Source of the DNA: Escherichia phage RB32
Sequence record: NC_008515.1
Strand: one strand, 5' to 3'
Length of the DNA stretch: 64,000 nucleotides
Shown here piece by piece: positions 2,448 through 36,139 of the stretch. The notes below the pieces were generated by a model, which ran no database searches, was not told where the DNA came from, and saw only the letters and a program-made list of their open reading frames with translations. A program made the translations under genes and the position numbers. The first letter of the stretch is position 1; each line of letters opens with the position of its first letter.

Positions 2448-4267
2448 TACTGGCTCATCCATTCTTTACGAAGGTCAGCGTTATCTCCCATGAGCATTTC
2501 AAAAAGCTCTTTCCAGTTCTCAGGAAGTTTAACAACATCATATACTGGATTTTGAATCATCTCACGATATTCAGATTTTTCCAAAGAGCCAAGTCCTTTA
2601 ATATAACGGATGCTATGTTTAGGTAGAGCATCTTTGGCACTCTCATATTCAGCGACTGTATAAAACCATTCTTGTTTTTTGCCGACCTGAGCGATGATTA
2701 CAGGAGTTTTGACAAAACGAATTCGTCCTTGCTCAAACAATTCTGGCCAATTACTAAAAAATCCGAGCAGAGAAGGATAAATGCTTCCTAGACCATCATG
2801 GTCAGCATCAGTCATAATAGCAATATTATGATAATTCAAGTTTTCAGCTTTTTCACCAAGAACTAATCCAGTGATTGCGCAAATATCAAATAGTTCTTTG
2901 TTTTTAAGCATATCAGCATATGACATACCCCAACTGTTGAGAACTTTACCACGTAATGGATAACCACCATGAAGTTCTTTATCACGAACATCAATAAGAT
3001 ATCCGATAGCCGAATCACCCTCAGTCAAGAACAATGTAGTATCAGCATCTTTACCACAAAGATTCGCTTTAATATGTTTATGAACCTTAGCTTTAGAAGC
3101 CTTTTTAGCTGCTTTAGTTTCTGCTGCTTTTTCTGCCGCCAATTTACGAGCCAAAGCAGCTTCAATAATCGGCATTAAAATTGCTTCATTATTTAGAATA
3201 GCACGTGAAATCTTTTTAGCATCAAGTTGAATATGACTACGAATTTCGCCAAATGGAGAAGTCAAACGCTCTTTAGTTTGAGAATCAAATCGCATGTTTT
3301 TCATATCACGAACAAACATAACGATAGTCAAACATTCTTTGACACGTGCTTTAGTTACATCAATTTTGAACTTACGTTTGATTTGTGGAATAAGGTCTTC
3401 ACAAATATCATCCATAACACAGTCAATGTGATGGCCACCATTCTTAGTGTGAATGTTATTCACGTAAGTTAATTGACGAAATCCATCCGGTGAACGACCA
3501 ACCGCAATAGAACAATTTTCTTGCTCTTGAACAATAGCATGTTCATCATACTGCCGTGCATATTTCTTAAAATTACCCTGAACCTTTTTACCATTAAAGG
3601 TAAATTGAATATCAGGATAAACAACAGCAAGTGTCTGGAGACGATCTAATGTAATGTCAAGATAAACTTGGGACAACTCATTAGTTTCAAATGACATAAA
3701 ATCAGGAATGAAAGTAACACGAGTTCCTTTCCATTTTCCAGGAATATCTTCCCATGATTTATTTTCCATGCCATTTGAACAACGAACTACAATATTATTT
3801 TGACCATCACCAGTTTCACCGACAAACATCACAGAAAAAATGTTTGTCAAACTAGAACCAACACCGTTCATACCGCCGGTGACGCGTTCTTTATCATCAC
3901 CGAAGTTACCACCTGCTTTTGGAATAGTCCATGCAGCAACAGGACCAGGAATTTCTTCACCGGTAGGTGTTTTAACCATCGCCTGTGGAATACCGCGACC
4001 GTTATCTTCAACTGTTACTTGATTGTTTTTAATAGTAACATTAATTTTATTTGCGAATTTAAACTTAGTACGAATACCTTCATCTACTGAGTTATCGATA
4101 ATTTCATCAATAAGCTTAACAAGACCAGGTACATACTGAACACTTTCCCATTTACCAAACAGAAAGCGCTCATGCATTTCATTAGCTGAAGAGCCAATGT
4201 ACATGCCGCTACGCTTTTTGATATGTTCAATATCGCTCAGAATTTTAATTTCATTCTTAATCATCAC
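2447..4267 (-). CDS. 39: DNA topoisomerase II large (ATPase) subunit, unsplit gp39+gp60 form
   Basis: 606-aa ORF; N-terminus MMIKNEIKILSDIEHIKKRSGMYIGS (GyrB-like ATPase), C-terminal ~150 aa correspond to T4 gp60; continuous frame, no bypass gap. Confidence 0.9.
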   Translation of the reverse strand: MMIKNEIKILSDIEHIKKRSGMYIGSSANEMHERFLFGKWESVQYVPGLVKLIDEIIDNSVDEGIRTKFKFANKINVTIKNNQVTVEDNGRGIPQAMVKTPTGEEIPGPVAAWTIPKAGGNFGDDKERVTGGMNGVGSSLTNIFSVMFVGETGDGQNNIVVRCSNGMENKSWEDIPGKWKGTRVTFIPDFMSFETNELSQVYLDITLDRLQTLAVVYPDIQFTFNGKKVQGNFKKYARQYDEHAIVQEQENCSIAVGRSPDGFRQLTYVNNIHTKNGGHHIDCVMDDICEDLIPQIKRKFKIDVTKARVKECLTIVMFVRDMKNMRFDSQTKERLTSPFGEIRSHIQLDAKKISRAILNNEAILMPIIEAALARKLAAEKAAETKAAKKASKAKVHKHIKANLCGKDADTTLFLTEGDSAIGYLIDVRDKELHGGYPLRGKVLNSWGMSYADMLKNKELFDICAITGLVLGEKAENLNYHNIAIMTDADHDGLGSIYPSLLGFFSNWPELFEQGRIRFVKTPVIIAQVGKKQEWFYTVAEYESAKDALPKHSIRYIKGLGSLEKSEYREMIQNPVYDVVKLPENWKELFEMLMGDNADLRKEWMSQ

Positions 4268-4291
4268 TTATCCTCGTTTGGTTTCGGGAAT

Positions 4292-4319
4292 ATTATACTC
4301 CAATAATCATAAAGCTAAA
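4292..4319 (-). promoter_or_regulatory. putative MotA-dependent middle promoter for gene 39
   Basis: minus strand TTTAGCTTTA (MotA-box-like) + 12 bp + TATAAT, 25 bp upstream of gene 39 start. Confidence 0.4.
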
Positions 4320-4331
4320 GGCCCGAAGGCC
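4320..4331 (-). terminator. GC stem with UUCG tetraloop (GGCC-UUCG-GGCC on the transcript) just after the upstream gene stop
   Basis: plus strand ggcccgaaggcc directly 3' of the stop of ORF 4334..4603; same hairpin type recurs at many gene junctions. Confidence 0.45.
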
Positions 4332-4333
4332 TT

Positions 4334-4603
4334 TTATTTAAAACGAATAGTCGAATCCTTGAAGAATAGTCCAGAACATACTGTTCCTTCTACTTTCTGC
4401 CCAGTAGGTCCAATAGCACGAAATCCAGTATGCTGGAAATCATTTTCAGAGCAACCGAACCAATTATATCCAGTGATTTCAATATTAGTAAAACCGCTTG
4501 AAGACAAAACTTTGGTTGCATTATCAGCATCAGTACATCCTATTAAAGACACTGCTAATACTAATGCTGCAATAGAACGATTAACATATTTCATAATTTT
4601 CAC
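4334..4603 (-). CDS. putative lipoprotein (signal peptide with lipobox-like LIGC)
   Basis: 89-aa ORF, N-terminus MKIMKYVNRSIAALVLAVSLIGC. Confidence 0.6.
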   Translation of the reverse strand: MKIMKYVNRSIAALVLAVSLIGCTDADNATKVLSSSGFTNIEITGYNWFGCSENDFQHTGFRAIGPTGQKVEGTVCSGLFFKDSTIRFK

Positions 4604-4971
4604 TTAAATTTAATGGCTTGAAGAAGACTAATAACTCTCAAGCGACTTCTTTCATCTTTAACTGTAAAGGAAAGAGGGTCACCAGATTTCATAGTGATAG
4701 TGCATCCAAAATCAAAATCTTCTGTAACTTCTTCGAATAGGTCAAATTCTTCATCATAAATTAGAACATTACTCTGAAAACTGTGAAGAATTTTTCCATC
4801 ATTTCCAGATGCTGTACTAATCATTGTAACATTATTACCTTTCATATCTTCAACGATAAATTCGCTTGTAGATATTACATTACTAATAGAACCATTCCTA
4901 TAAATAGCAGAAAATAGATATTTCTTTTCTTCACCTTCGCGAATGCGATATTTCTTACCGATTTTAAACAT
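4600..4971 (-). CDS. hypothetical protein
   Basis: ORF track 4600..4977; first ATG is the third codon (MFKIGKKYRI...), 4-nt overlap with downstream gene. Confidence 0.55.
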   Translation of the reverse strand: MFKIGKKYRIREGEEKKYLFSAIYRNGSISNVISTSEFIVEDMKGNNVTMISTASGNDGKILHSFQSNVLIYDEEFDLFEEVTEDFDFGCTITMKSGDPLSFTVKDERSRLRVISLLQAIKFK

Positions 4972-7068: not shown

Positions 7069-7608
7069 TTATCTCATTTCAATAAAATCTACGAGTTCGG
7101 CATAGGATTTACGGAACATTACTTGATGCCCACCAATGATAACTTGGTCATCTGGTACTTCGTATACAGCAAGATAAAATCCTTTCGAAGATAATTCTTC
7201 CCGCTCTTCTCGCGTGAACCATCTCATCATATCATACTCACTAGCGAAAGCAAAATGATAAAGAGCTATAAACCATCCTGGAATATGATATTCTACTCCA
7301 ACATAATCTTTCTTGAACTTAGTATTAATTACTATATTAGCGTTTTTAACTAATAGTTTATCTTCGTGTGGTAAAGGAATTCTTTTATTATTATCGCTAT
7401 GATGCATAAAATTAGGTCTGTCATAACCTACGTGTAATAGCCACTCTTCACTCCATGAATCTATTATACTCCTGTACGGCGTTATTTGAACACAAAGATT
7501 TCGACGTATTGTTATAGCATCTTCATAATCAAGAATACTAAACGATGATTCAACACGATAAATTTTCATTTTATTATCCTCAGTAGCTATGGTGTTATAA
7601 TACCACAA
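7069..7608 (-). CDS. hypothetical protein
   Basis: 179-aa ORF, 3-nt spacing to downstream gene, early promoter upstream. Confidence 0.55.
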   Translation of the reverse strand: MWYYNTIATEDNKMKIYRVESSFSILDYEDAITIRRNLCVQITPYRSIIDSWSEEWLLHVGYDRPNFMHHSDNNKRIPLPHEDKLLVKNANIVINTKFKKDYVGVEYHIPGWFIALYHFAFASEYDMMRWFTREEREELSSKGFYLAVYEVPDDQVIIGGHQVMFRKSYAELVDFIEMR

Positions 7609-8817: not shown

Positions 8818-10137
8818 TCATACATAAAACACATCATAACGACCACGGGTAACACCAACATAAAGAAGCTGCTGTGCTAGTTCAGCATCTGCATAATGAA
8901 TACAAGGTGTATAAATGAAAGCACGATCTACAGACATGCCCTGAGCTTTATGGAATGTTGACGCAGGAAGTGCTTTCACTTTACTGAACTGTGATTTAGC
9001 ATCCCAAAAATCACTCCACGGAGCTTTTCCGCCTTTGTTCCAATTTTTATAAGTTTCTGCCGTTTTACCTAAAAATAAATTAAACTTATATAGCTCTTCA
9101 TCAGATGAAATTATTTTAATCTTTTCACGATAATATTCATCATCGCCGTAAGTTTCTACTGTTAAATCCCAATGACGAATTAAGTATTCTCCAGAAACAC
9201 CACGAGCTTTAACAAAGGTTGATGTATACTCTGCTTCTATAATACGAACTAATTGTCCGTTATTAAAAATAATTTCTGACACAGGCTTTCCATCAATTTT
9301 ATATGTTTTAATTAATGGTTCCTGCATTACAATAATTTCACCGACAATAAAATCTTTATCAGTTTCAAAAATCTTTTTACGAATAATGCTATTTAACTTG
9401 TCAACAGATTTATTCGTAAATGCCATTACGCGATTTTCAAACAAATCATCTAGTGATTTGACGATTGAAAAATAATTTACCATAAAATCGCGTAAAGCGG
9501 TATCACCAGTAAATCCACGTACTCCATGCCCGTCAACAACTTTATCATAAATCCACTTACCATTACGAACATCAGTAGCTACATCAATAATAGGAGCATT
9601 ACTGCGTTTAACTTCAGTAAGTTCACACTGATAAAAATCTTTGTGTGTAAAGAATGGACTGATATAAGCAGTGTTTTCTCCTGGGTCAACAGGTCTGATT
9701 TGCTTATTATCACCTATTCCAATTATGGTACACCATGGCGGGATAGTTGAAAGCAGAATTTTAAATAGCTTTCTATCATACATTGACACTTCGTCGCAGA
9801 TTAATACCCTGCATTTAGCTAAATCTGGTACTTCCTTCTGTTCAAAAAGAACATTTTCTTCATATGTTACCGGGTTAATTTTAAGAATGCTGTGAATAGT
9901 ACTCTCTTCTTTCCCCGACAGTTTTGAAAGAATCTTTTTAGCTGCATGTGTAGGAGCTGCCAAAATGATACCAGTTTCGCCTGTTGATATTAAAGCTTCA
10001 ATGATGAACTTAGTAAGAGTAGTCTTACCAGTACCAGCAGGTCCATTAATAGTTACATGATGTTTCTTTTCTTTAATAGCCCTCATAACGATGTTAAAGG
10101 CATTTTTCTGGCCTTCTGTCAAATCATCAAATGTCAT
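8818..10137 (-). CDS. dda: Dda DNA helicase (SF1)
   Basis: 439-aa ORF, Walker A GPAGTGKTT; length equals T4 Dda. Confidence 0.9.
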   Translation of the reverse strand: MTFDDLTEGQKNAFNIVMRAIKEKKHHVTINGPAGTGKTTLTKFIIEALISTGETGIILAAPTHAAKKILSKLSGKEESTIHSILKINPVTYEENVLFEQKEVPDLAKCRVLICDEVSMYDRKLFKILLSTIPPWCTIIGIGDNKQIRPVDPGENTAYISPFFTHKDFYQCELTEVKRSNAPIIDVATDVRNGKWIYDKVVDGHGVRGFTGDTALRDFMVNYFSIVKSLDDLFENRVMAFTNKSVDKLNSIIRKKIFETDKDFIVGEIIVMQEPLIKTYKIDGKPVSEIIFNNGQLVRIIEAEYTSTFVKARGVSGEYLIRHWDLTVETYGDDEYYREKIKIISSDEELYKFNLFLGKTAETYKNWNKGGKAPWSDFWDAKSQFSKVKALPASTFHKAQGMSVDRAFIYTPCIHYADAELAQQLLYVGVTRGRYDVFYV

Positions 10138-15683: not shown

Positions 15684-15754
15684 TATTTTTCCTTTCAATT
15701 CATGGGTTAGTAGATTAATTATACAATAAATATATAAAGCAATAAGGAGGACAT

Positions 15755-15955
15755 ATGGTACAAAAATTAATGGCACTTGTTAATGCCATCAAAGGTAATA
15801 AAAAGCGTATAGCTTTTACTATTTCTGTTATGGTAGGAATTTTACTCTGGAACTTTATTTTATCACCAATTGCAATTGCGCATGGTGTTAATATTCCAGT
15901 AGTTACTCTTGATACATTTGTAGATTTAGCATTTGCTTTAGTTGGGTTAATTTAA
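15755..15955 (+). CDS. small hydrophobic membrane protein on the opposite strand
   Basis: 66-aa ORF preceded by AAGGAGG 5 nt before ATG; two predicted TM segments; stop overlaps the gp61 stop. Confidence 0.5.
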   Translation: MVQKLMALVNAIKGNKKRIAFTISVMVGILLWNFILSPIAIAHGVNIPVVTLDTFVDLAFALVGLI

Positions 15956-16980
15956 ATCTTAGCATATTTAGATAACCGCATTTTAGCCATTAACCCCTGG
16001 GCAATATTATTTTTCATATATTCCATAATTTGTTCAGGGGTTGCACCTTCCTTTCTAATCATATCATTAACATCTTTTGATTTCCAGGGAGATTTATCCC
16101 AAAACATAACCCTTTCTCCTGCATCAACTAATTTAGTCATCCGTTTAATAGTGTCAGGGTGACGAGGTTCATTATCTAAGACCCACACTCGTCTATCTTT
16201 AAATGGAACAATTTCTAGGTCTAATTGACCACCCGTAATAGCTATACCATTTTCAATGAAAAGGGAATCGATAGGTCCTTCTAGAACATATACATCGCCA
16301 TCTTTAACTCGTTCGACTCCATAGATTTTTGTTGCCTCAGGATAAGCTTTGATGGTGATATATTTTTGAGGAGCATCTTTCTTTAATGCACGCCCTTGAA
16401 ACGACTCGGCTTTTCCGTTAGCATTATAAATTGGAATAACAAGACGAGGCTCAGGTATTTCCTTTTTATATGTTCCCGGTGCTATGCTATTAACTAATTT
16501 AGGCCATTCGGTTGTAAACCAAAGATATTTCCATTTATCCTTTGGAATACAACGAGCTTTTACATATTTTATAATTGCATGGTCTTCCGCCAGTTTATCT
16601 AATCTAACGCATGACGGAAGAGATTTAATTATTTTCTTCTCAGGTTGTTTAGGAAGTTCTTTAGGTTTTTCTACTGGACGACTTTTACCTTTTTCTTTTC
16701 TTATTTCAAAGATATACTCACGATATAAATCAGGTTCAAACTCCTTTAAATATATTCCGATTGGTGCATGATAGTTACAGTTATAGCAATGAATATTTCC
16801 TTCATTATTATCACCATAATACCATCCACGAGCTTTATTCTGGTCGGTTTTTGAATCTCCACAAACAGGGCATCTAAACCGTAATTTAAAAGTTGAACTA
16901 TTATTTACTTGTGTGAATTTAGGTAAATGAGCTAATGCACGATACGCAAATTCATTATCAATCCAAGGTATTGATGACAT
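15952..16980 (-). CDS. 61: DNA primase
   Basis: 342-aa ORF, N-terminal zinc ribbon CPVCGDS...CYNCNYH; length equals T4 gp61. Confidence 0.9.
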   Translation of the reverse strand: MSSIPWIDNEFAYRALAHLPKFTQVNNSSTFKLRFRCPVCGDSKTDQNKARGWYYGDNNEGNIHCYNCNYHAPIGIYLKEFEPDLYREYIFEIRKEKGKSRPVEKPKELPKQPEKKIIKSLPSCVRLDKLAEDHAIIKYVKARCIPKDKWKYLWFTTEWPKLVNSIAPGTYKKEIPEPRLVIPIYNANGKAESFQGRALKKDAPQKYITIKAYPEATKIYGVERVKDGDVYVLEGPIDSLFIENGIAITGGQLDLEIVPFKDRRVWVLDNEPRHPDTIKRMTKLVDAGERVMFWDKSPWKSKDVNDMIRKEGATPEQIMEYMKNNIAQGLMAKMRLSKYAKI

Positions 16981-20421: not shown

Positions 20422-20766
20422 TTAAAAGAATTTAAATTTTTTCTTTGACCTTTTATTAAATGCATCTTGTAGTTGCATTGTAATACATTTTTCTACATGA
20501 GGAGCTAACTCAGCTTTTCTTTCTTGGTCAAGAACAGCAAAGTCCATTACAACCTTTCCATCAACCCAATCTAATTTTGTCACATACACAATGTGTGTAG
20601 AACCATCTTCTAGTTTAATGACAATCTCCTGGATAACATTTTCCATGGCAGATTTAATTATCTTAAGAGACTCATTAAAAAGACGCTCTTTTCTTTCTTC
20701 TTCCCCCTCCGAAGAGGGGGATTCATCGATAATTTCTAGATCTAAATCTAAATCATCTTTATTCAT
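20422..20766 (-). CDS. 40: acidic protein at the gene 40 position (head vertex assembly chaperone in T4)
   Basis: ORF track 20422..20784; internal Met at 20766 reduces overlap with uvsX; position between uvsX and 41. Confidence 0.55.
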   Translation of the reverse strand: MNKDDLDLDLEIIDESPSSEGEEERKERLFNESLKIIKSAMENVIQEIVIKLEDGSTHIVYVTKLDWVDGKVVMDFAVLDQERKAELAPHVEKCITMQLQDAFNKRSKKKFKFF

Positions 20767-21940
20767 TAAATTCTTCCATATCACTTAACTGCTCGAGGTC
20801 AGTTTCTAAATCAGCTGCTGATTTACTTTTACTTTCTGGAGATTTAAATTTTTCAACCTTTGAGTTAATCAATTCATCAACTTCAGCTTCAACAATTTCA
20901 TTACTATCAATAGCACCTAACTGATAAGCGCGTTTAATAGCATCTCGGAATGGTTGATGCTTAAATAAAGGACCCCAGAATGTAGTGCAGTTGGTATCTT
21001 TTGCACGCCAAGATTTTTCTTCGCGAATCATCTCGCCGGTTTCTTCGTCAAGAAATTCACGAGCATACCAGCCATTTTTAGGTTTTACTACAAATCCTAA
21101 TTCTAGAGCCATATCTAACAATCCAGAATAAGGATCGATACCACCGTCAAATTTAACATCAATAAAGAATTTACTTTTTTCTTTAACGGTACGAGATTTT
21201 TCTACATTTAGAACAAATTGATACCCTTGAAGATCAGAACCATCTTTAATCTGACGTTTACCGATAATGAATACAGTATCAGCCGAATACATTACGCCTG
21301 TACCACCTGTCATCACGGTTTTACTAAACATTTCAATTGTTTCAATTGTATGGTTAACCGCAACGCATGGAATATTTTTAATGCTAAAATAAGGAGTAAC
21401 AATACGGAATAATGACTTCAGTGATTTAGCACGAGTCATATCTGCCACAGATTTTTCATTCAAGGCATCTTCCGTTTCTTTCTTAGAAGCCATATTACCG
21501 ATTGAGTCGATGAATACAATAACCTTTTCACCACGCTCAATAGCTTCAAGCTGGTTCACCATATCAATTTTCAGTTGTTCAACTGACTGAATTGGCGTAT
21601 GAATTACACGTTCCGGGTCAACTCCCATGGATCGCAAATAAGCTGGAGTAATACCAAATTCGCTATCATAGAATAGACAAACCGCGTCAGGATATTTGTT
21701 CAAATATGCCGCAACCATAGTCAAAGACATATTTGATTTAAAGTGTTTAGAAGGCCCTGCAAAAATAGTTAAACCAGATTGCATACCGCCATCAATCGCA
21801 CCAGAAATAGCAATATTAAGCATTGGGATTTTTGTACGGATTACATCCTTTTCATTAAAGAATTTAGATGTAGTCAGTTCAGCAGTCATTTTAGAAGTGG
21901 AAGCTTTAATCAAACGGGATTTTAAATCTGCAATAGACAT
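20759..21940 (-). CDS. uvsX: UvsX recombinase (RecA-like)
   Basis: 393-aa ORF MSIADLKSRLIKASTSK..., Walker A GPSKHFKS. Confidence 0.9.
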   Translation of the reverse strand: MSIADLKSRLIKASTSKMTAELTTSKFFNEKDVIRTKIPMLNIAISGAIDGGMQSGLTIFAGPSKHFKSNMSLTMVAAYLNKYPDAVCLFYDSEFGITPAYLRSMGVDPERVIHTPIQSVEQLKIDMVNQLEAIERGEKVIVFIDSIGNMASKKETEDALNEKSVADMTRAKSLKSLFRIVTPYFSIKNIPCVAVNHTIETIEMFSKTVMTGGTGVMYSADTVFIIGKRQIKDGSDLQGYQFVLNVEKSRTVKEKSKFFIDVKFDGGIDPYSGLLDMALELGFVVKPKNGWYAREFLDEETGEMIREEKSWRAKDTNCTTFWGPLFKHQPFRDAIKRAYQLGAIDSNEIVEAEVDELINSKVEKFKSPESKSKSAADLETDLEQLSDMEEFNE

Positions 21941-22018
21941 TCATTTTTTTCCATAGGCATCATTATATTTTCCTCACTGGTTAAAGATAGAGTAATTATA
22001 ACACAATAAATTTAGGCA

Positions 22019-22867
22019 TTAATCAACTACTATTGGATGAATAGCATTAAACTTATGAAATGCTTCTGATTTTTCTTTACGCGAAACACACATGCGAAGA
22101 ACCTTTAATGGCTCGTCTTCTTCACCCAACGATTTTCGTTTTTCAATATTCGATGTTTTCCAACGAGCTTGCTCTGGAAACTCTCTATTGATTTGCTCAA
22201 GCGCTCTATTATGTTTAGAATTACTACGAATTGAACTGCACCCGCCAGGAGCTTGTGCTTTTCCAGATACAACTAGATATTTGAACAAGGCCAAATGCGG
22301 ATAACCTTGATTAATTAAATTGAGAAATGCATACATATCTTCACATAAATCAATTTTTCCATACCCAATTTGTTCTGTCGTAAGTTTTCCGAGGTCATAC
22401 CATGTATTCGTGAATCCATATGAGTTTTCACGATAATTACCCCAAGATGAAGTAATTTTAAAAATTGGTAGACGAGCATGACCGTGATAATACCCGCAAT
22501 CCATGGCATCTTCAACATATTGAATCAATTCATAGAACTGTTCACGGGTTAATTGATTGACTTTATCTACACAGCGACGATCATCTCTTTTTCGCATTGA
22601 ACTCATACGAATAGTAGTATCATCGTCAATCATCCAGATTCGTTGACCTGCATACATATCAGTAATTGCTTTACGAGTACCGGCAATTCCATTAACATCA
22701 TCAGGAATAGTTACAATTTTAGCTTTAGACCCATAGGCATCATAATAAGCTTTTTCTTCATGTTCACGCACTACAATATGGGGTTCATAATCAGTCGGAA
22801 ACATATCAAGGGCAGAAACTGCCCCTACACGTTGATAGCTCGGAATTACGAATTGAATCATTTCCAC
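22019..22867 (-). CDS. DNA glycosyltransferase candidate (DxD-type), occupying the slot of T4 beta-glucosyltransferase
   Basis: 282-aa ORF with QRIWMIDDDTTIR (DxD-like); located between uvsX and 42; shorter than T4 beta-gt (351 aa). Confidence 0.5.
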   Translation of the reverse strand: MEMIQFVIPSYQRVGAVSALDMFPTDYEPHIVVREHEEKAYYDAYGSKAKIVTIPDDVNGIAGTRKAITDMYAGQRIWMIDDDTTIRMSSMRKRDDRRCVDKVNQLTREQFYELIQYVEDAMDCGYYHGHARLPIFKITSSWGNYRENSYGFTNTWYDLGKLTTEQIGYGKIDLCEDMYAFLNLINQGYPHLALFKYLVVSGKAQAPGGCSSIRSNSKHNRALEQINREFPEQARWKTSNIEKRKSLGEEDEPLKVLRMCVSRKEKSEAFHKFNAIHPIVVD

Positions 22868-23598
22868 TCACCGTTATAATCTTTTTTCACAATATGAGTT
22901 TCGCCAGTATTCCACCAATGATCAACCAAGTAAAAATGACGAGAATATACATGAAGACTTCCAACATTCCATATAATAGAACCTGCTTTATACTGACGAG
23001 TTGAATCGCCTGCATTCAAATCAGATACTAATTTATCTAATACGTATTTTTGCCATGCATAATCATTACGGAATCCGAAGACCACGTCATTTGAGCGCAT
23101 GTTAACAACCGCATTGATTTTCTTGTCACGAATCAGATACTGTACGGTATTCGTACACATGAAATCTGACATGCCATCTTTATTGTAGTCAAACTGCATA
23201 GATGGACGAGTATAAATCATGATACCACGTCGAGAATCAGGATTTTGACCAAGTTCAGCTAAACACATGTCATATTGAGCATAGTTATCTTCTGACCAGA
23301 TAGCCCAACCATAATTCGAGTTAATTTCACCTTTAGAAGATGCTACCTGCTGCCAAATCTTCGGTGTTTCACCTGGAATATCTTTAACAAACAGACTTTG
23401 AGACTTATACCATTCAAGTTCACGCTGAATGTATTCATCATTAAGAGCGCCAAAAATAAACGGTTCATCTGCTACAAATGATGCGCCAATAATTTCAATA
23501 GTTTTAACACCAGTTTTATCAATTACGAAATCTTTTTCCTTTAATGCAATTCCCAAATGAAGACGGATTTCTTCAACTGTCAAAGAGTCATTAATCAT
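22858..23598 (-). CDS. 42: dCMP hydroxymethylase
   Basis: 246-aa ORF, thymidylate-synthase-like; length and position as T4 gp42. Confidence 0.9.
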   Translation of the reverse strand: MINDSLTVEEIRLHLGIALKEKDFVIDKTGVKTIEIIGASFVADEPFIFGALNDEYIQRELEWYKSQSLFVKDIPGETPKIWQQVASSKGEINSNYGWAIWSEDNYAQYDMCLAELGQNPDSRRGIMIYTRPSMQFDYNKDGMSDFMCTNTVQYLIRDKKINAVVNMRSNDVVFGFRNDYAWQKYVLDKLVSDLNAGDSTRQYKAGSIIWNVGSLHVYSRHFYLVDHWWNTGETHIVKKDYNGEWK

Positions 23599-23605
23599 TT
23601 AAACC

Positions 23606-23755
23606 TCAATTGATACATTCATATTTAAATTGTAACAGTAATAAACCCCACCCTATGATAAGAGTTGGAATCATAGCAGGAACTGTTACGCTATAGTATA
23701 TACTTATTATAACCATCAAGATTAAAAGCAATGCTGTTATAATTTTGCTTTTCAT
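23606..23755 (-). CDS. small hydrophobic peptide, below ORF-track cutoff
   Basis: 49-codon ORF read by hand (MKSKIITALLLILMVIISIYYSVTVPAMIPTLIIGWGLLLLQFKYECIN); ATGA overlap with imm stop. Confidence 0.35.
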   Translation of the reverse strand: MKSKIITALLLILMVIISIYYSVTVPAMIPTLIIGWGLLLLQFKYECIN

Positions 23756-24003
23756 TCCTTCTCTCTGATGATAATTACCTGATTTGGCTGCGCAGACTTT
23801 TTAGTTTCACCTGCAATTGACCAAATAAATGTAATAAACCAACCAATAATTGACCAGTTAAACAGTAAAGATGTGAAAAAGATTCCTACTGTCGATTTTG
23901 ACCCACGCATCAAGGCGATAAACCATGGAAGCATGTATATAATAATAGCCAACACGCCTGAAACTAAAACCATAAAAATTGAACCTGCTACTAAAGTTTC
24001 CAT
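23752..24003 (-). CDS. imm: immunity protein Imm (superinfection exclusion, inner membrane)
   Basis: 83-aa hydrophobic ORF, same length and position as T4 Imm. Confidence 0.8.
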   Translation of the reverse strand: METLVAGSIFMVLVSGVLAIIIYMLPWFIALMRGSKSTVGIFFTSLLFNWSIIGWFITFIWSIAGETKKSAQPNQVIIIREKE

Positions 24004-24010
24004 GTTTTCC

Positions 24011-24403
24011 TCACTTAGTCAAATTTTTTACACATGAATTATAAGAATTCACTACATACTCCATCGGAGCATTTTTACCTGTACGCCATTGGTAATTATT
24101 AGCCCAATTTGCCCAAAGTTCTGCGCAGTAGTTTTCAATTTTTTCTTCGCGTGTAATTACATCCGAATTACGATATGCTTGAGCAGATTCATCTGGACGA
24201 ATAGCTTCGTCAAAATTCGCCTGCATTTGTTCTACTGTTTGCTTTGAAGCTTCTTTATAACACTTGACATTAGGATTATAAAATTTGCTTGAACAGTTTA
24301 CAATTTTTCCTGCATCAGACTGATTTACTACCGGTCCTTGAGCTACACAACCAGTAAGACCTAATGCAATAACCAAAATAGCGATTTTCATTTCATTCTC
24401 CAA
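24011..24403 (-). CDS. putative lipoprotein (imm.1 position)
   Basis: 130-aa ORF, signal peptide with LTGC lipobox. Confidence 0.6.
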   Translation of the reverse strand: MENEMKIAILVIALGLTGCVAQGPVVNQSDAGKIVNCSSKFYNPNVKCYKEASKQTVEQMQANFDEAIRPDESAQAYRNSDVITREEKIENYCAELWANWANNYQWRTGKNAPMEYVVNSYNSCVKNLTK

Positions 24404-24425
24404 ATCCGTATTAGTTGATAGTTGT

Positions 24426-24455
24426 ATAGTACCATGGAAGAACAGTCTTGTAAAC
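24426..24455 (-). promoter_or_regulatory. early promoter (-35 TTTACA, 17-bp spacer, -10 TACTAT) with conserved leader
   Basis: minus strand GTTTACAagactgttcttccatggTACTATacaactatcaact...ggagaatgaaATG. Confidence 0.45.
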
Positions 24456-24542
24456 AGTTTTGTGAAAAATTTTTAGGGAATCCAAAGGGTCCAGAATCAT
24501 CTGTTTTTCATAAGTATAGATTTATATTACTTGTATGAAAAA

Positions 24543-24558
24543 GGGACCTGGAGGTCCC
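24543..24558 (-). terminator. palindromic hairpin after gene 43 stop
   Basis: gggacctggaggtccc immediately 3' of the gp43 stop on the transcript. Confidence 0.45.
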
Positions 24559-24571
24559 TAGATTTATTCTA

Positions 24572-27268
24572 TCAGCCAAACAGGAAGTCTAACGAAGCTT
24601 TTTCTTCATAGTCCATGCCAGCCGATTCACACATACCCGCAAGCGGTTTAACAAACGATTTTTGGAACAAAGTTGAGTGGTCAATCCAAGATAGTACGTC
24701 AGAACGAATTTCTTTTGGAAGTTCTGTACCCGATGGCCAAGCAATGCACTTGTCACCAAATGGATTTCCTTCACGTAATGGAAGAACCATTACTTTATTT
24801 CCATCCAAAATTGGAGCTACACCCAGACCACTAACAGCTCGACGATAAGTTAGCACACCGCGAATATGGAACGGGCATTTAAATCCTGGCCAACCTTTAT
24901 CATCATATTTCGCTATATCGTTCGCAGTTTTTACTTCAGCAATAACTTTATAGTCGAGTTGACGATATTCTTTCTCGAAGTTCTTGTAATATTCTTGGAC
25001 AGACTCTTCGCCTTCCTGAAGAATACGACGAATACTTTCTTCGAGAGCTTCTTGCACTGCTTTTGGTGTTGAACTCTGCTGAGTTTCCATACCCATAATT
25101 TTTAGATGCGGTTCAGCAAATCGTTTATCTTCCATATCATAAACGTTCAGAGCATAACGCTTTTTCGCTTTCCAAAATCCACCAACGCCCTTTGAACCAA
25201 GTGGAGGACAAGAAATAGCTTCACGGTCCATATGCATCAGATGCTCGCGGTTATTCATATAATCGCATAACTCACGATATGCAACATCAATCATAGGTTC
25301 CATCTTTTTCTTACCGAACTGATTCATAAATTCAACCAAATCGTTCTGCTCTTTGAATCGGTCAAGACCAACTTTTTCAATAACTTTATCTACACAAACA
25401 TATACCGAATCAGTATCACCTGCTGCGATGAAATCTTCATCATTAGTTCCGCATACTTTATTCAGATATTCATTAATTTTACGAGCAATCCACTGAATAC
25501 CGACTTGGCCAAAAATTGTGATAGCAGTAGCATTTCGCAAATCATAGTAACGGAAATGAATATTACCAAGAGCACCATAAAGACTGTTAATAAGAATTTT
25601 ACGGTTCAGCTGATTTGTATTAGCAAGTGTAGCAGCTTTTTCACATTCCTCAATCAGACTATTGAGAACAGATTCAGTATAATTCGACAGTTCATTTAAG
25701 AAATCATCATTGAACTTAACATATCGTTCAACTTCTGGTTTAGTTGAACAGGACCCTGCGCCTTTCATAATAATCTTTTTAATAGCTTCGGCATTCATTT
25801 CTTCAGCGAACATTTTCTTTTTCCAGTCTTTACGCTGGAAAAATACTTTAGCGATTTCCTTTGGAATGATACCTTCTTGATGCTTATCATACATCCATCC
25901 ATTCGGAGAACAAGAATATTCATCACTCGGTTTAGGAGCTGTTCCTGCGATATATTCATGAATTGGATGAACTTTAAACTGCCCACGAATAGTCTCAGGA
26001 CTAATGTTAACCTGACGAATAATGCTCGGATACAGAGACGTCAAGTCAAAACTCATAATATATCGACGAGCAATTGGTTTAGGTTCAAATACAAATGCAC
26101 CCGGAAAACTTTGTTTAACGTGTGAACCTTGTTGAGGAATAACCTTATGTTCACCTTTCAATGAGTTAAAAATAATAGCATCCCAAGTTTTAATAGGACT
26201 CATTACACCGGAAAAAGGCATTTTAGCGTAATAAGACATACTTAAAACTAGATCAATAAACCCACGAATTTTATCAATTGCTTGAACTGATTCTACGTCA
26301 ATGATGTTATAACTAATGTATCGTTGATGATTAGTCTCACGAAGTTTATTAATAGGACCGTCGTATGGTAATTTACCCTTTTTGGTTTCATGTTGAGCAA
26401 CTGATTCCAAAGAGAATGACGGCAAATTAGTAAAAGCGAATTTCTTGTACAAATCTAAATAATCAAGAATAGATACGCCATCAATAGAATAAATTTCTTT
26501 GCTACCGTACATATTTTGAATTAGTTTAGATTTTACTCGACCGATTGGAGAGAAGCGTTTCATACTACGTTCACCGAGAACCATTTTAACGCGATTCATG
26601 ATATACGGAACGTCAAATCCCTCAATATTCCAACCAGTAAAAATAGCAGGTCGTTTCTGTTCCCAGAGATTGATATATTCCATGAGCATATCACGCTCAT
26701 TATCGAATGGCATATAAATTACTCGGTCAAGAATTTCTTGAGGAACTTCATCACCACCTTCGCAGTCGAGCTTAGCAGCTAACTTTGCATCCCATTTTGA
26801 TACTGAACCGTACATTGAATTCAACAAATCAAAGACGTAAAAACGATCGTCAATTGAATCATAATGAGTGATAGCATCAATTTCATATTCTGCTTTCATT
26901 GGGTCAGGAAATTTATCACCAGTAACCTCAATGTCGCAGTTAGCTACACGAACAAATTTTCGGTCATAAACAATTTCTGAACCATATGTATCACTGATGT
27001 AAGCGAGTTTAAAATCGTTCATACCGAGAGCTTCGAGACCGATGTCTTCCATTCGCTTCATCCAGTCTCGCGCATCTTTCATTGATGGAAATTTTTGAGG
27101 AGCGCAATTTTTACCATAAATGTCTTTGTATTTTGACTCTTCCTTACAATGTCTAAACATAGTTGGAAGATATTCTACTTCGCGAGTACGTTCCTTTCCA
27201 TTTTCATCAATATAACGTTCAACAATATTATTTCCGACTGTTTCGATAGAGATATAAAATTCTTTCAT
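24572..27268 (-). CDS. 43: DNA polymerase (family B)
   Basis: 898-aa ORF, exo motif FDIE, polymerase motif GDTDS; length equals T4 gp43. Confidence 0.95.
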   Translation of the reverse strand: MKEFYISIETVGNNIVERYIDENGKERTREVEYLPTMFRHCKEESKYKDIYGKNCAPQKFPSMKDARDWMKRMEDIGLEALGMNDFKLAYISDTYGSEIVYDRKFVRVANCDIEVTGDKFPDPMKAEYEIDAITHYDSIDDRFYVFDLLNSMYGSVSKWDAKLAAKLDCEGGDEVPQEILDRVIYMPFDNERDMLMEYINLWEQKRPAIFTGWNIEGFDVPYIMNRVKMVLGERSMKRFSPIGRVKSKLIQNMYGSKEIYSIDGVSILDYLDLYKKFAFTNLPSFSLESVAQHETKKGKLPYDGPINKLRETNHQRYISYNIIDVESVQAIDKIRGFIDLVLSMSYYAKMPFSGVMSPIKTWDAIIFNSLKGEHKVIPQQGSHVKQSFPGAFVFEPKPIARRYIMSFDLTSLYPSIIRQVNISPETIRGQFKVHPIHEYIAGTAPKPSDEYSCSPNGWMYDKHQEGIIPKEIAKVFFQRKDWKKKMFAEEMNAEAIKKIIMKGAGSCSTKPEVERYVKFNDDFLNELSNYTESVLNSLIEECEKAATLANTNQLNRKILINSLYGALGNIHFRYYDLRNATAITIFGQVGIQWIARKINEYLNKVCGTNDEDFIAAGDTDSVYVCVDKVIEKVGLDRFKEQNDLVEFMNQFGKKKMEPMIDVAYRELCDYMNNREHLMHMDREAISCPPLGSKGVGGFWKAKKRYALNVYDMEDKRFAEPHLKIMGMETQQSSTPKAVQEALEESIRRILQEGEESVQEYYKNFEKEYRQLDYKVIAEVKTANDIAKYDDKGWPGFKCPFHIRGVLTYRRAVSGLGVAPILDGNKVMVLPLREGNPFGDKCIAWPSGTELPKEIRSDVLSWIDHSTLFQKSFVKPLAGMCESAGMDYEEKASLDFLFG

Positions 27269-34936: not shown

Positions 34937-36139
34937 TTATTTTGTAATAATGTCAAATTGCTCTTTAAAGCAGAAGCTTGAATCTTGATGCTGATACAAA
35001 AATTCATATGCTTTTTCTCGCTCACGGTCATAAAGAGCTCGGTCAGATGACAGTTCTTTAATACGCTCGAATGTTGATTCCATGTCATTTTCATCAAACC
35101 AAATGATACCGCTATCATGCGAGGTCAAAGGAGTATTATCAACACGGAATTTCAAATTATCACCCGTTGATTTCCAGAAAACAGGAATTGTACCGCAAGC
35201 ACCAAGCTCGAGATGAGTATATTCTAAAGAACGTTGTAGATATTTTTTGTCCAACTTACTCAACTGATAACCAAATCCGGATTTACTCATGCGTTCAAGC
35301 ATTTCGCTATTTACATAACGGTCAAGAATTTGCGTTGGCAAATTAGGAGCAATTTTAATTTGGTCTACTTGATGAAGACGATAATACTCGTATGGAATTC
35401 CTTTTTCTTTAATAGGAATGAACGCTGGAGAACGTTCCAGACCTTCCATAATAGTACTTAGTCCTGCAGGTTTAAGATGTTTTTCATGAAAATCAAACAT
35501 CTGATAAAAACCTTTCCATGTAGTCGTACGACCAATCCAACGGTTGATATTCATGTTAATTTCAGAAACATCTTTCCAGTAGGTTGATCTAACCTTCGCA
35601 ATATCCATAGGAGGCTGAAAGTTATATACTGTCGGCGCTTCTTCAATATCATCAAACAAAGAAACTGTTTCAGGATACCATTCTTTCATCAGAACTTTAT
35701 TAAAATCGCCATTATCAGAATGACTAAAAATAACATCAGCTCGACGAACAGTTTCTTCTAATCCCAAATTTCGACGCAAAGAAAGAGAAGAATGGTCATG
35801 TTGATAAACTACAACACGAACCGAAGGTTTAATGTTATCAATAATTTTTTTATAGTTATTAATTGTGTCTTCTTCAACTGAAGTAGCAGGAACTGAATTG
35901 ATAATTAGAATATCACAATCATTTACCAGCTTAAGCGTTTTATCGTATTCTTTTGCCAATAAAACCGGAATTGAAAATGATTTATAATCATGCGCACAGT
36001 TACGAGTAAATGATTTATCTTTAGCATAAACCAAAGTTACTTCATGACCATTTTTAATAAACCAATCACGCTGCTCAAGAGAAAATTTAGTTACACCGCA
36101 ACCTTCAAGACCTCGAGCCATAAAAATACATACTTTCAT
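34937..36139 (-). CDS. a-gt: DNA alpha-glucosyltransferase
   Basis: 400-aa ORF; same length as T4 alpha-gt and in the expected position upstream of gene 47. Confidence 0.85.
   Translation of the reverse strand: MKVCIFMARGLEGCGVTKFSLEQRDWFIKNGHEVTLVYAKDKSFTRNCAHDYKSFSIPVLLAKEYDKTLKLVNDCDILIINSVPATSVEEDTINNYKKIIDNIKPSVRVVVYQHDHSSLSLRRNLGLEETVRRADVIFSHSDNGDFNKVLMKEWYPETVSLFDDIEEAPTVYNFQPPMDIAKVRSTYWKDVSEINMNINRWIGRTTTWKGFYQMFDFHEKHLKPAGLSTIMEGLERSPAFIPIKEKGIPYEYYRLHQVDQIKIAPNLPTQILDRYVNSEMLERMSKSGFGYQLSKLDKKYLQRSLEYTHLELGACGTIPVFWKSTGDNLKFRVDNTPLTSHDSGIIWFDENDMESTFERIKELSSDRALYDREREKAYEFLYQHQDSSFCFKEQFDIITK

Follow-up and report, generated by a model that had tools for sequence, protein, structure and literature searches.

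The gene between uvsX and gene 42 of phage RB33 very probably encodes a T2/T6-type β-glucosyl-HMC-α-glucosyltransferase

The gene that lies between uvsX and gene 42 in this phage DNA can be assigned with high confidence to the T2/T6-type β-glucosyl-HMC-α-glucosyltransferases (βα-GT, also called g-gt or TAGT), which are small, DxD-dependent, inverting enzymes of the GT-A fold. Which host defences a T-even phage evades depends on the type of sugar attached to its hmC, and the combination of α-GT with TAGT informs users of RB33 about the defence outcomes to be expected. The gene, its annotation and its function class are already published for RB33, so that nothing new arises from the gene itself, and a T2-specific change of arginine 11 to histidine provides only a modest lead.

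The DNA analysed here (the window, 64,000 nucleotides in its full length) was related to public genomes by a megablast search of phage records with positions 21500..23700. This segment has a single 100% match, Enterobacteria phage RB33 (KM607001.1), and approximately 380 Tequatrovirus records match it at 95-99%, with T2 at 97.2%. The RB33 record names the identical gene RB33_042, 'b-gt: beta-glucosyl-HMC-alpha-glucosyl-transferase', with protein AIT74680.1. Thomas et al. 2018 (PMC6024577, Table 1) list this protein among the ba-gt homologues, at 98% to T2, together with AIT74699.1 as a-gt (91% to T4) and no b-gt for RB33. Over the whole 64 kb, the window and KM607001.1 differ in only two places. 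A perfect 119-bp tandem duplication at 7287-7524 of the record is represented by a single copy at 7287..7405 of the window, and position 9906 of the window is a T where the record has a G. Because a length of 119 bp is not divisible by three, the extra copy would shift the frame of RB33_012; the two differences could represent an assembly artefact or a difference between stocks. The βα-GT gene is untouched by either of them, and coordinates of the record downstream of the duplication are converted to those of the window by subtracting 119. The genes relevant to the assignment are as follows.

20759..21940, minus strand: uvsX, on the other flank of the βα-GT gene
22019..22861, minus strand: βα-GT (TAGT) coding sequence, 280 aa and stop, identical to RB33_042 (AIT74680.1)
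22858..22861, minus strand: ATGA overlap, in which the ATG of the βα-GT gene (22861-22859) shares bases with the TGA of gene 42 (22860-22858); the coding sequence boundaries of the record agree
22858..23598, minus strand: gene 42, dCMP hydroxymethylase, from the open reading frame list and the annotation of the identical record KM607001.1
15165..15683, minus strand: gene 56, dCTPase, corresponding to KM607001.1 15284..15802 minus 119
34937..36139, minus strand: α-GT (a-gt), 400 aa, RB33_061 in KM607001.1, matching Pfam PF11440 at E 5.4e-237

The first-pass annotation of this DNA described a 282-aa protein at 22019..22867. The open reading frame list does contain a minus-strand frame at these positions, which opens with a GTG at 22867 and would encode 282 aa; the reading frame was therefore retained, and its length was revised to 280 aa. 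The minus strand at the start of the gene reads 5'-GGTGAGTGGAAATGATTC, and the ATG at 22861 is the likely start, on account of the overlap with the end of gene 42 and the annotation of relatives. The GTG at 22867 was rejected on the same two grounds, as the annotated starts of all relatives, including RB33_042 and T2, are at odds with it. The ATGA arrangement implies that βα-GT would be translationally coupled to, and transcribed together with, gene 42. A scan of 21700..24600 for sigma-70-like promoters returned 14 sites against 13.9 in shuffled sequence, and thus no excess. One terminator-like hairpin (TAGGGGCAGTTTCTGCCCTTG) lies at 22807..22827 on the minus strand within codons 12-18 of the βα-GT gene and is probably fortuitous. 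The location between uvsX and gene 42 agrees with the open reading frame list and the annotation, as does the earlier statement that T4 has its 351-aa b-gt in this interval. T4 additionally has the homing endonuclease gene segA there, between uvsX and b-gt (3571..4236 of the compared T4 locus), where the window has only a 78-bp spacer (21941..22018) between uvsX and βα-GT.

Comparison with the classical enzymes places the protein in a narrow group. Over 280 aa its identity (tblastn) amounts to 98.2% with the T2 enzyme and 97.5% with that of T6. The ba-gt genes of these two phages (g-gt; UniProt Q06717 and Q06718 according to PMC6024577) encode proteins of equal length, 280 aa, occupy an equal slot and have the same ATGA overlap, and both phages have the same partner α-GT and the same absence of β-GT as found here. 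The protein matches PHROG 842 ('beta-glucosyl-HMC-alpha-glucosyltransferase') at E 9.9e-90, and its sole Pfam match at E up to 1 is the TET-associated glycosyltransferase family (TAGT, PF20691), with 38.1 bits against a gathering cut-off of 27.5 and coverage of profile positions 2-205 of 205. Homologues were detected by tblastn in 687 phage records. These include 471 records with at least 95% identity, from Tequatrovirus phages of Escherichia, Shigella, Yersinia and Citrobacter, and approximately 200 records at ~65% from phages of Klebsiella and of Enterobacter (for example CC31), with a Serratia phage at 48%. The T-even subgroup forms a compact clade, in which identity is 96-100% within Tequatrovirus, ~65% to the group of CC31 (Karamvirus) and the Klebsiella phages and ~48% to the Serratia phage, whereas other TAGTs (PF20691) share only 20-30% identity with the T-even enzyme.

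The structural model provides a second line of evidence. AlphaFold prediction from the single sequence was too poor for use (pLDDT 39.3), and prediction with an alignment of 49 homologues, collected in two search rounds and extending down to ~14% identity, produced a model with a pLDDT of 92. This model consists of a single Rossmann-like α/β/α domain with the GT-A fold, so that the glycosyltransferase fold, on which the first-pass annotation had made its proposal depend, is present. Structural neighbours of the model are all GT-A, and a Foldseek search of viral models (BFVD) returned a Klebsiella phage βα-GT as the best match (E 2e-47), followed by proteins named TAGT. An AlphaFold3 model of the T6 enzyme gives the same fold and has been placed as sister to GT2 (PMC13216743). 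Searches of the PDB yielded nothing real with the single sequence (E of at least 1.5), and the family profile yielded only a marginal GT2 match (E 0.09) and no solved TAGT structure. Cellular GT2 inverting glycosyltransferases (9jma, an AvpGT/PglI-like β-1,3-glucosyltransferase, and TarP, 6h1j) share only 8-16% identity with the phage protein, have no DNA acceptor and are a sister group of the TAGTs rather than members of the same family (PMC13216743). The residues of functional interest are encoded at the following positions.

22619..22627, minus strand: codons of D79-D80-D81 (gacgatgat), a DxD motif with a role in metal/nucleotide-sugar binding proposed from the fold, invariant in 49/49 homologues
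22829..22831, minus strand: codon of R11 in the IPSYQR loop after strand β1, Arg in 49/49 homologues and His in T2
22337..22342, minus strand: codons of E174-D175, an 'ED' motif with the candidate catalytic base, D175 being present in 43/49 homologues

Five residues (R11, R63, D79, D80 and D81) are invariant throughout the 49-sequence alignment. The DxD-like motif IWMIDDDTTIR was correctly recognized from the sequence at the outset and corresponds to residues 75-85 in the 280-aa numbering; in the model its three aspartates directly follow strand β4 (residues 74-78), which is the canonical position of a DxD motif. The suggestion of a DxD-type glycosyltransferase of the T2/T6 kind is thereby borne out by identity to both enzymes, by Pfam family, by fold and by the invariant DDD. 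In the family profile search (E 0.09), the IPSYQR loop aligns with the nucleotide-binding loop PTYNR of the GT2 enzyme 9jma, and D175 aligns with the eD motif of the same protein, where the stretch scores -2.0 bits and the whole match (E 0.09) is not significant. A catalytic-base role of the 'ED' motif is established for GT2 enzymes. By analogy, D175 may serve as the catalytic base of an inverting GT-A enzyme.

The protein was also compared with T4 β-GT (b-gt, 351 aa, Pfam PF09198), which shares its genomic slot. Both enzymes use UDP-glucose as donor, have the same inverting outcome (a β-linkage) and complete the glucosylation begun by α-GT. They differ in fold, which is GT-B in T4 β-GT and GT-A in βα-GT (PMC13216743), and in acceptor, as T4 β-GT uses the hydroxymethyl group of hmC whereas βα-GT uses the glucose of α-glucosyl-hmC. 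Homology between the two was rejected, since BLASTP shows no similarity to the 351-aa T4 protein (E 2.2), PF09198 gives no match, and the model has the single domain of a GT-A enzyme rather than the two domains of a GT-B enzyme; the two proteins are unrelated, as had been proposed. A homologue of T4 β-GT is also absent from the whole RB33 genome (tblastn, best E 3.8).

The pathway in which βα-GT acts has been described for T-even phages (PMC6024577, PMC11078745, bioRxiv 10.64898/2026.02.25.707755). The gene 42 product generates hm-dCMP, gp56 removes dCTP, and the polymerase then inserts hmC, of which ~75% receives an α-linked glucose from α-GT; βα-GT subsequently adds a second glucose, linked β-1,6 to the first, which yields gentiobiosyl-hmC. 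The genes for gp42, gp56, α-GT and βα-GT lie in the window; α-GT is confirmed by the PF11440 match at 34937..36139, the position given for it at the outset, and lies on the minus strand. The products of gene 42 and gene 56 would thus place hmC instead of C in the phage DNA, and α-GT would attach an α-linked glucose to about three quarters of the hmC, creating the acceptor for βα-GT. The latter would transfer a second glucose from host UDP-glucose, β-1,6 to the first, to produce gentiobiosyl-hmC, although the chemistry of the RB33 enzyme itself is inferred from that of its relatives. The DNA would be expected to contain free hmC, α-glucosyl-hmC and gentiobiosyl-hmC; β-glucosyl-hmC is not expected because the RB33 genome is without β-GT.

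Phages with nearly identical enzymes support this expectation. T6 with a deletion of ba-gt contains α-glucosyl-hmC only and shows raised sensitivity to the glycosylase Brig1 (PMC11078745), and the deglucosylase BapA acts on DNA of T6 Δg-gt but not on that of wild-type T6 (bioRxiv 10.64898/2026.02.25.707755). The Durham phages Solly and CP, with enzymes 98.9% and 98.6% identical to that of RB33, contain by LC-MS approximately two thirds gentiobiosyl-hmC, approximately one third hmC and no β-glucosyl-hmC (PMC13390438). A decoration of the T2/T6 kind, in which a second glucose is added to α-glucosyl-HMC, had been considered likely from the sequence, and the identity to both enzymes, the TAGT family membership and the lack of β-GT in the RB33 genome support it. 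The alternative offered with it, of 'something else', became unnecessary with this identification.

Two other chemistries were weighed at this point. The enzyme might take unglucosylated hmC as its direct acceptor and so stand in functionally for T4 β-GT, whose genomic slot it shares, and solitary distant TAGT homologues in some phages without α-GT or β-GT (PMC13216743) make such an activity conceivable somewhere in the family. For RB33 we regard this as highly improbable, as T2, T6 and the Durham phages, with enzymes 98-99% identical, are without β-glucosyl-hmC and retain ~25-33% bare hmC (PMC13390438, PMC11078745), and the T6 deletion leaves only α-glucosyl-hmC, without a reported increase in bare hmC. 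Still more remote is the transfer of a sugar other than glucose, or the formation of a linkage other than β-1,6, which would result in a new decoration. The sugars on T4-like phage DNA do vary, with arabinose used by RB69 and NP (PMC6024577, PMC13390438), and the RB33 enzyme has three private substitutions. However, these substitutions (R46K, I50V and A278V) are conservative and none falls in an invariant or nearly invariant column of the 49-sequence alignment, and the arabinose phages use unrelated transferases together with a sugar-nucleotide gene cluster and are without homologues of a-gt, b-gt and ba-gt (PMC6024577). The formation of gentiobiosyl-hmC by β-1,6 transfer of glucose is accordingly the reading that we adopt for RB33.

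The extent of this modification is a separate matter. Gentiobiosyl-hmC accounts for 72% in T6 and for only ~5% in T2 (PMC6024577), a contrast known for sixty years, and the two enzymes are 98% identical; the extent is therefore not securely readable from sequence. An alignment of the RB33, T2, T6, Solly and CP enzymes contains ten variable positions. Only K46, V50 and V278 set RB33 apart from the T6 (AP018814), Solly and CP consensus, and these three changes relative to the T2 and T6 enzymes are conservative, private to RB33 and at unconserved positions. T6 has N40, G55 and H106 where RB33 and T2 have Y40, D55 and R106, and T2 has His11 where RB33 and T6 have Arg11. The histidine occurs in all four T2 records that were translated, whereas the arginine is found in RB33, T6 (AP018814), Solly, CP and all 49 homologues. 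An exact match to the N-terminal 44 aa of the T2 enzyme is present in only 8 of 680 phage records, which comprise seven of T2 and one of SV76.

Since R11 lies in the IPSYQR loop that was aligned to a nucleotide-binding loop, R11H is a plausible cause of the low level in T2. We tentatively suggest, as a possibility with somewhat less than even chances, that R11H is a hypomorphic mutation of T2 that explains the difference between 5% and 72%, with RB33 (Arg11) as a normal, highly gentiobiosylated phage and T2 as the odd one out. No discussion of R11H as the cause of the T2 level was found in the literature searched, which did not extend to older publications. RB33 might instead resemble T2 in having a poor enzyme that converts only a few percent of hmC to gentiobiosyl-hmC, as the T2 gene has this low level at 98.2% identity (PMC6024577) and RB33 agrees with T2 rather than T6 at residues 40, 55 and 106. 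We consider this unlikely, given that RB33 retains the Arg11 that is invariant in 49/49 homologues and replaced by His in the four T2 records. Moreover, Solly and CP share Y40, D55 and R106 yet carry approximately two thirds gentiobiosyl-hmC, so positions 40, 55 and 106 do not decide the level. A high, T6-like gentiobiosylation is predicted for RB33 because its sequence keeps the Arg11 lost in T2. The α-GT of RB33, which is of the class ~91% identical to that of T4 (PMC6024577, Table 1), could also affect the pattern.

The sequenced T6 stocks differ at this gene. In T6 record MH550421.1, codon 10 of ba-gt is amber (CAA to TAG, Q10*) and the coding sequence of the depositors is shortened, starting from Met20; in AP018814.1 the gene is intact. 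Judged from these records, a functional second glucosyltransferase may be missing in some laboratory stocks of T6.

With respect to host defence, gentiobiosyl-hmC is resistant in vitro to Brig1, a glycosylase of α-glucosyl-hmC (PMC11078745), and also withstands the deglucosylase BapA (bioRxiv 10.64898/2026.02.25.707755), and GmrSD-type enzymes still cut DNA containing it (PMC13216743, PMC13390438). Concerning other modification genes, only a small 'dam.1' is located between gene 56 and gene 61 (approximately 15700..15960 in the window; 15874..16074 in the record). The annotation contains no dam methyltransferase in this interval, and RB33 appears from it to be without Dam, like most Durham Tequatrovirus phages.

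The pairing of α-GT with ba-gt has been described for 12 sequenced RB phages, with the T4 pair in RB55 and RB59 only (PMC6024577). In a broader survey, α-GT with TAGT or β-GT with TAGT is the rule, and just 6 of 753 genomes combine α-GT with β-GT (PMC13216743); the unusual state is therefore that of T4 and not that of the phage examined here. The combination of α-GT and TAGT is the common Tequatrovirus arrangement, to which T4 is the exception. In CC31, the interval from gene 42 to uvsX contains a TAGT homologue (65%) and, directly adjoining it, a β-GT of the T4 type (2995..4904 of the compared locus). This pairing of β-GT with TAGT, which is also discussed in PMC13216743, suggests either that both anomers are acceptors for TAGTs or that there are two kinds of TAGT.
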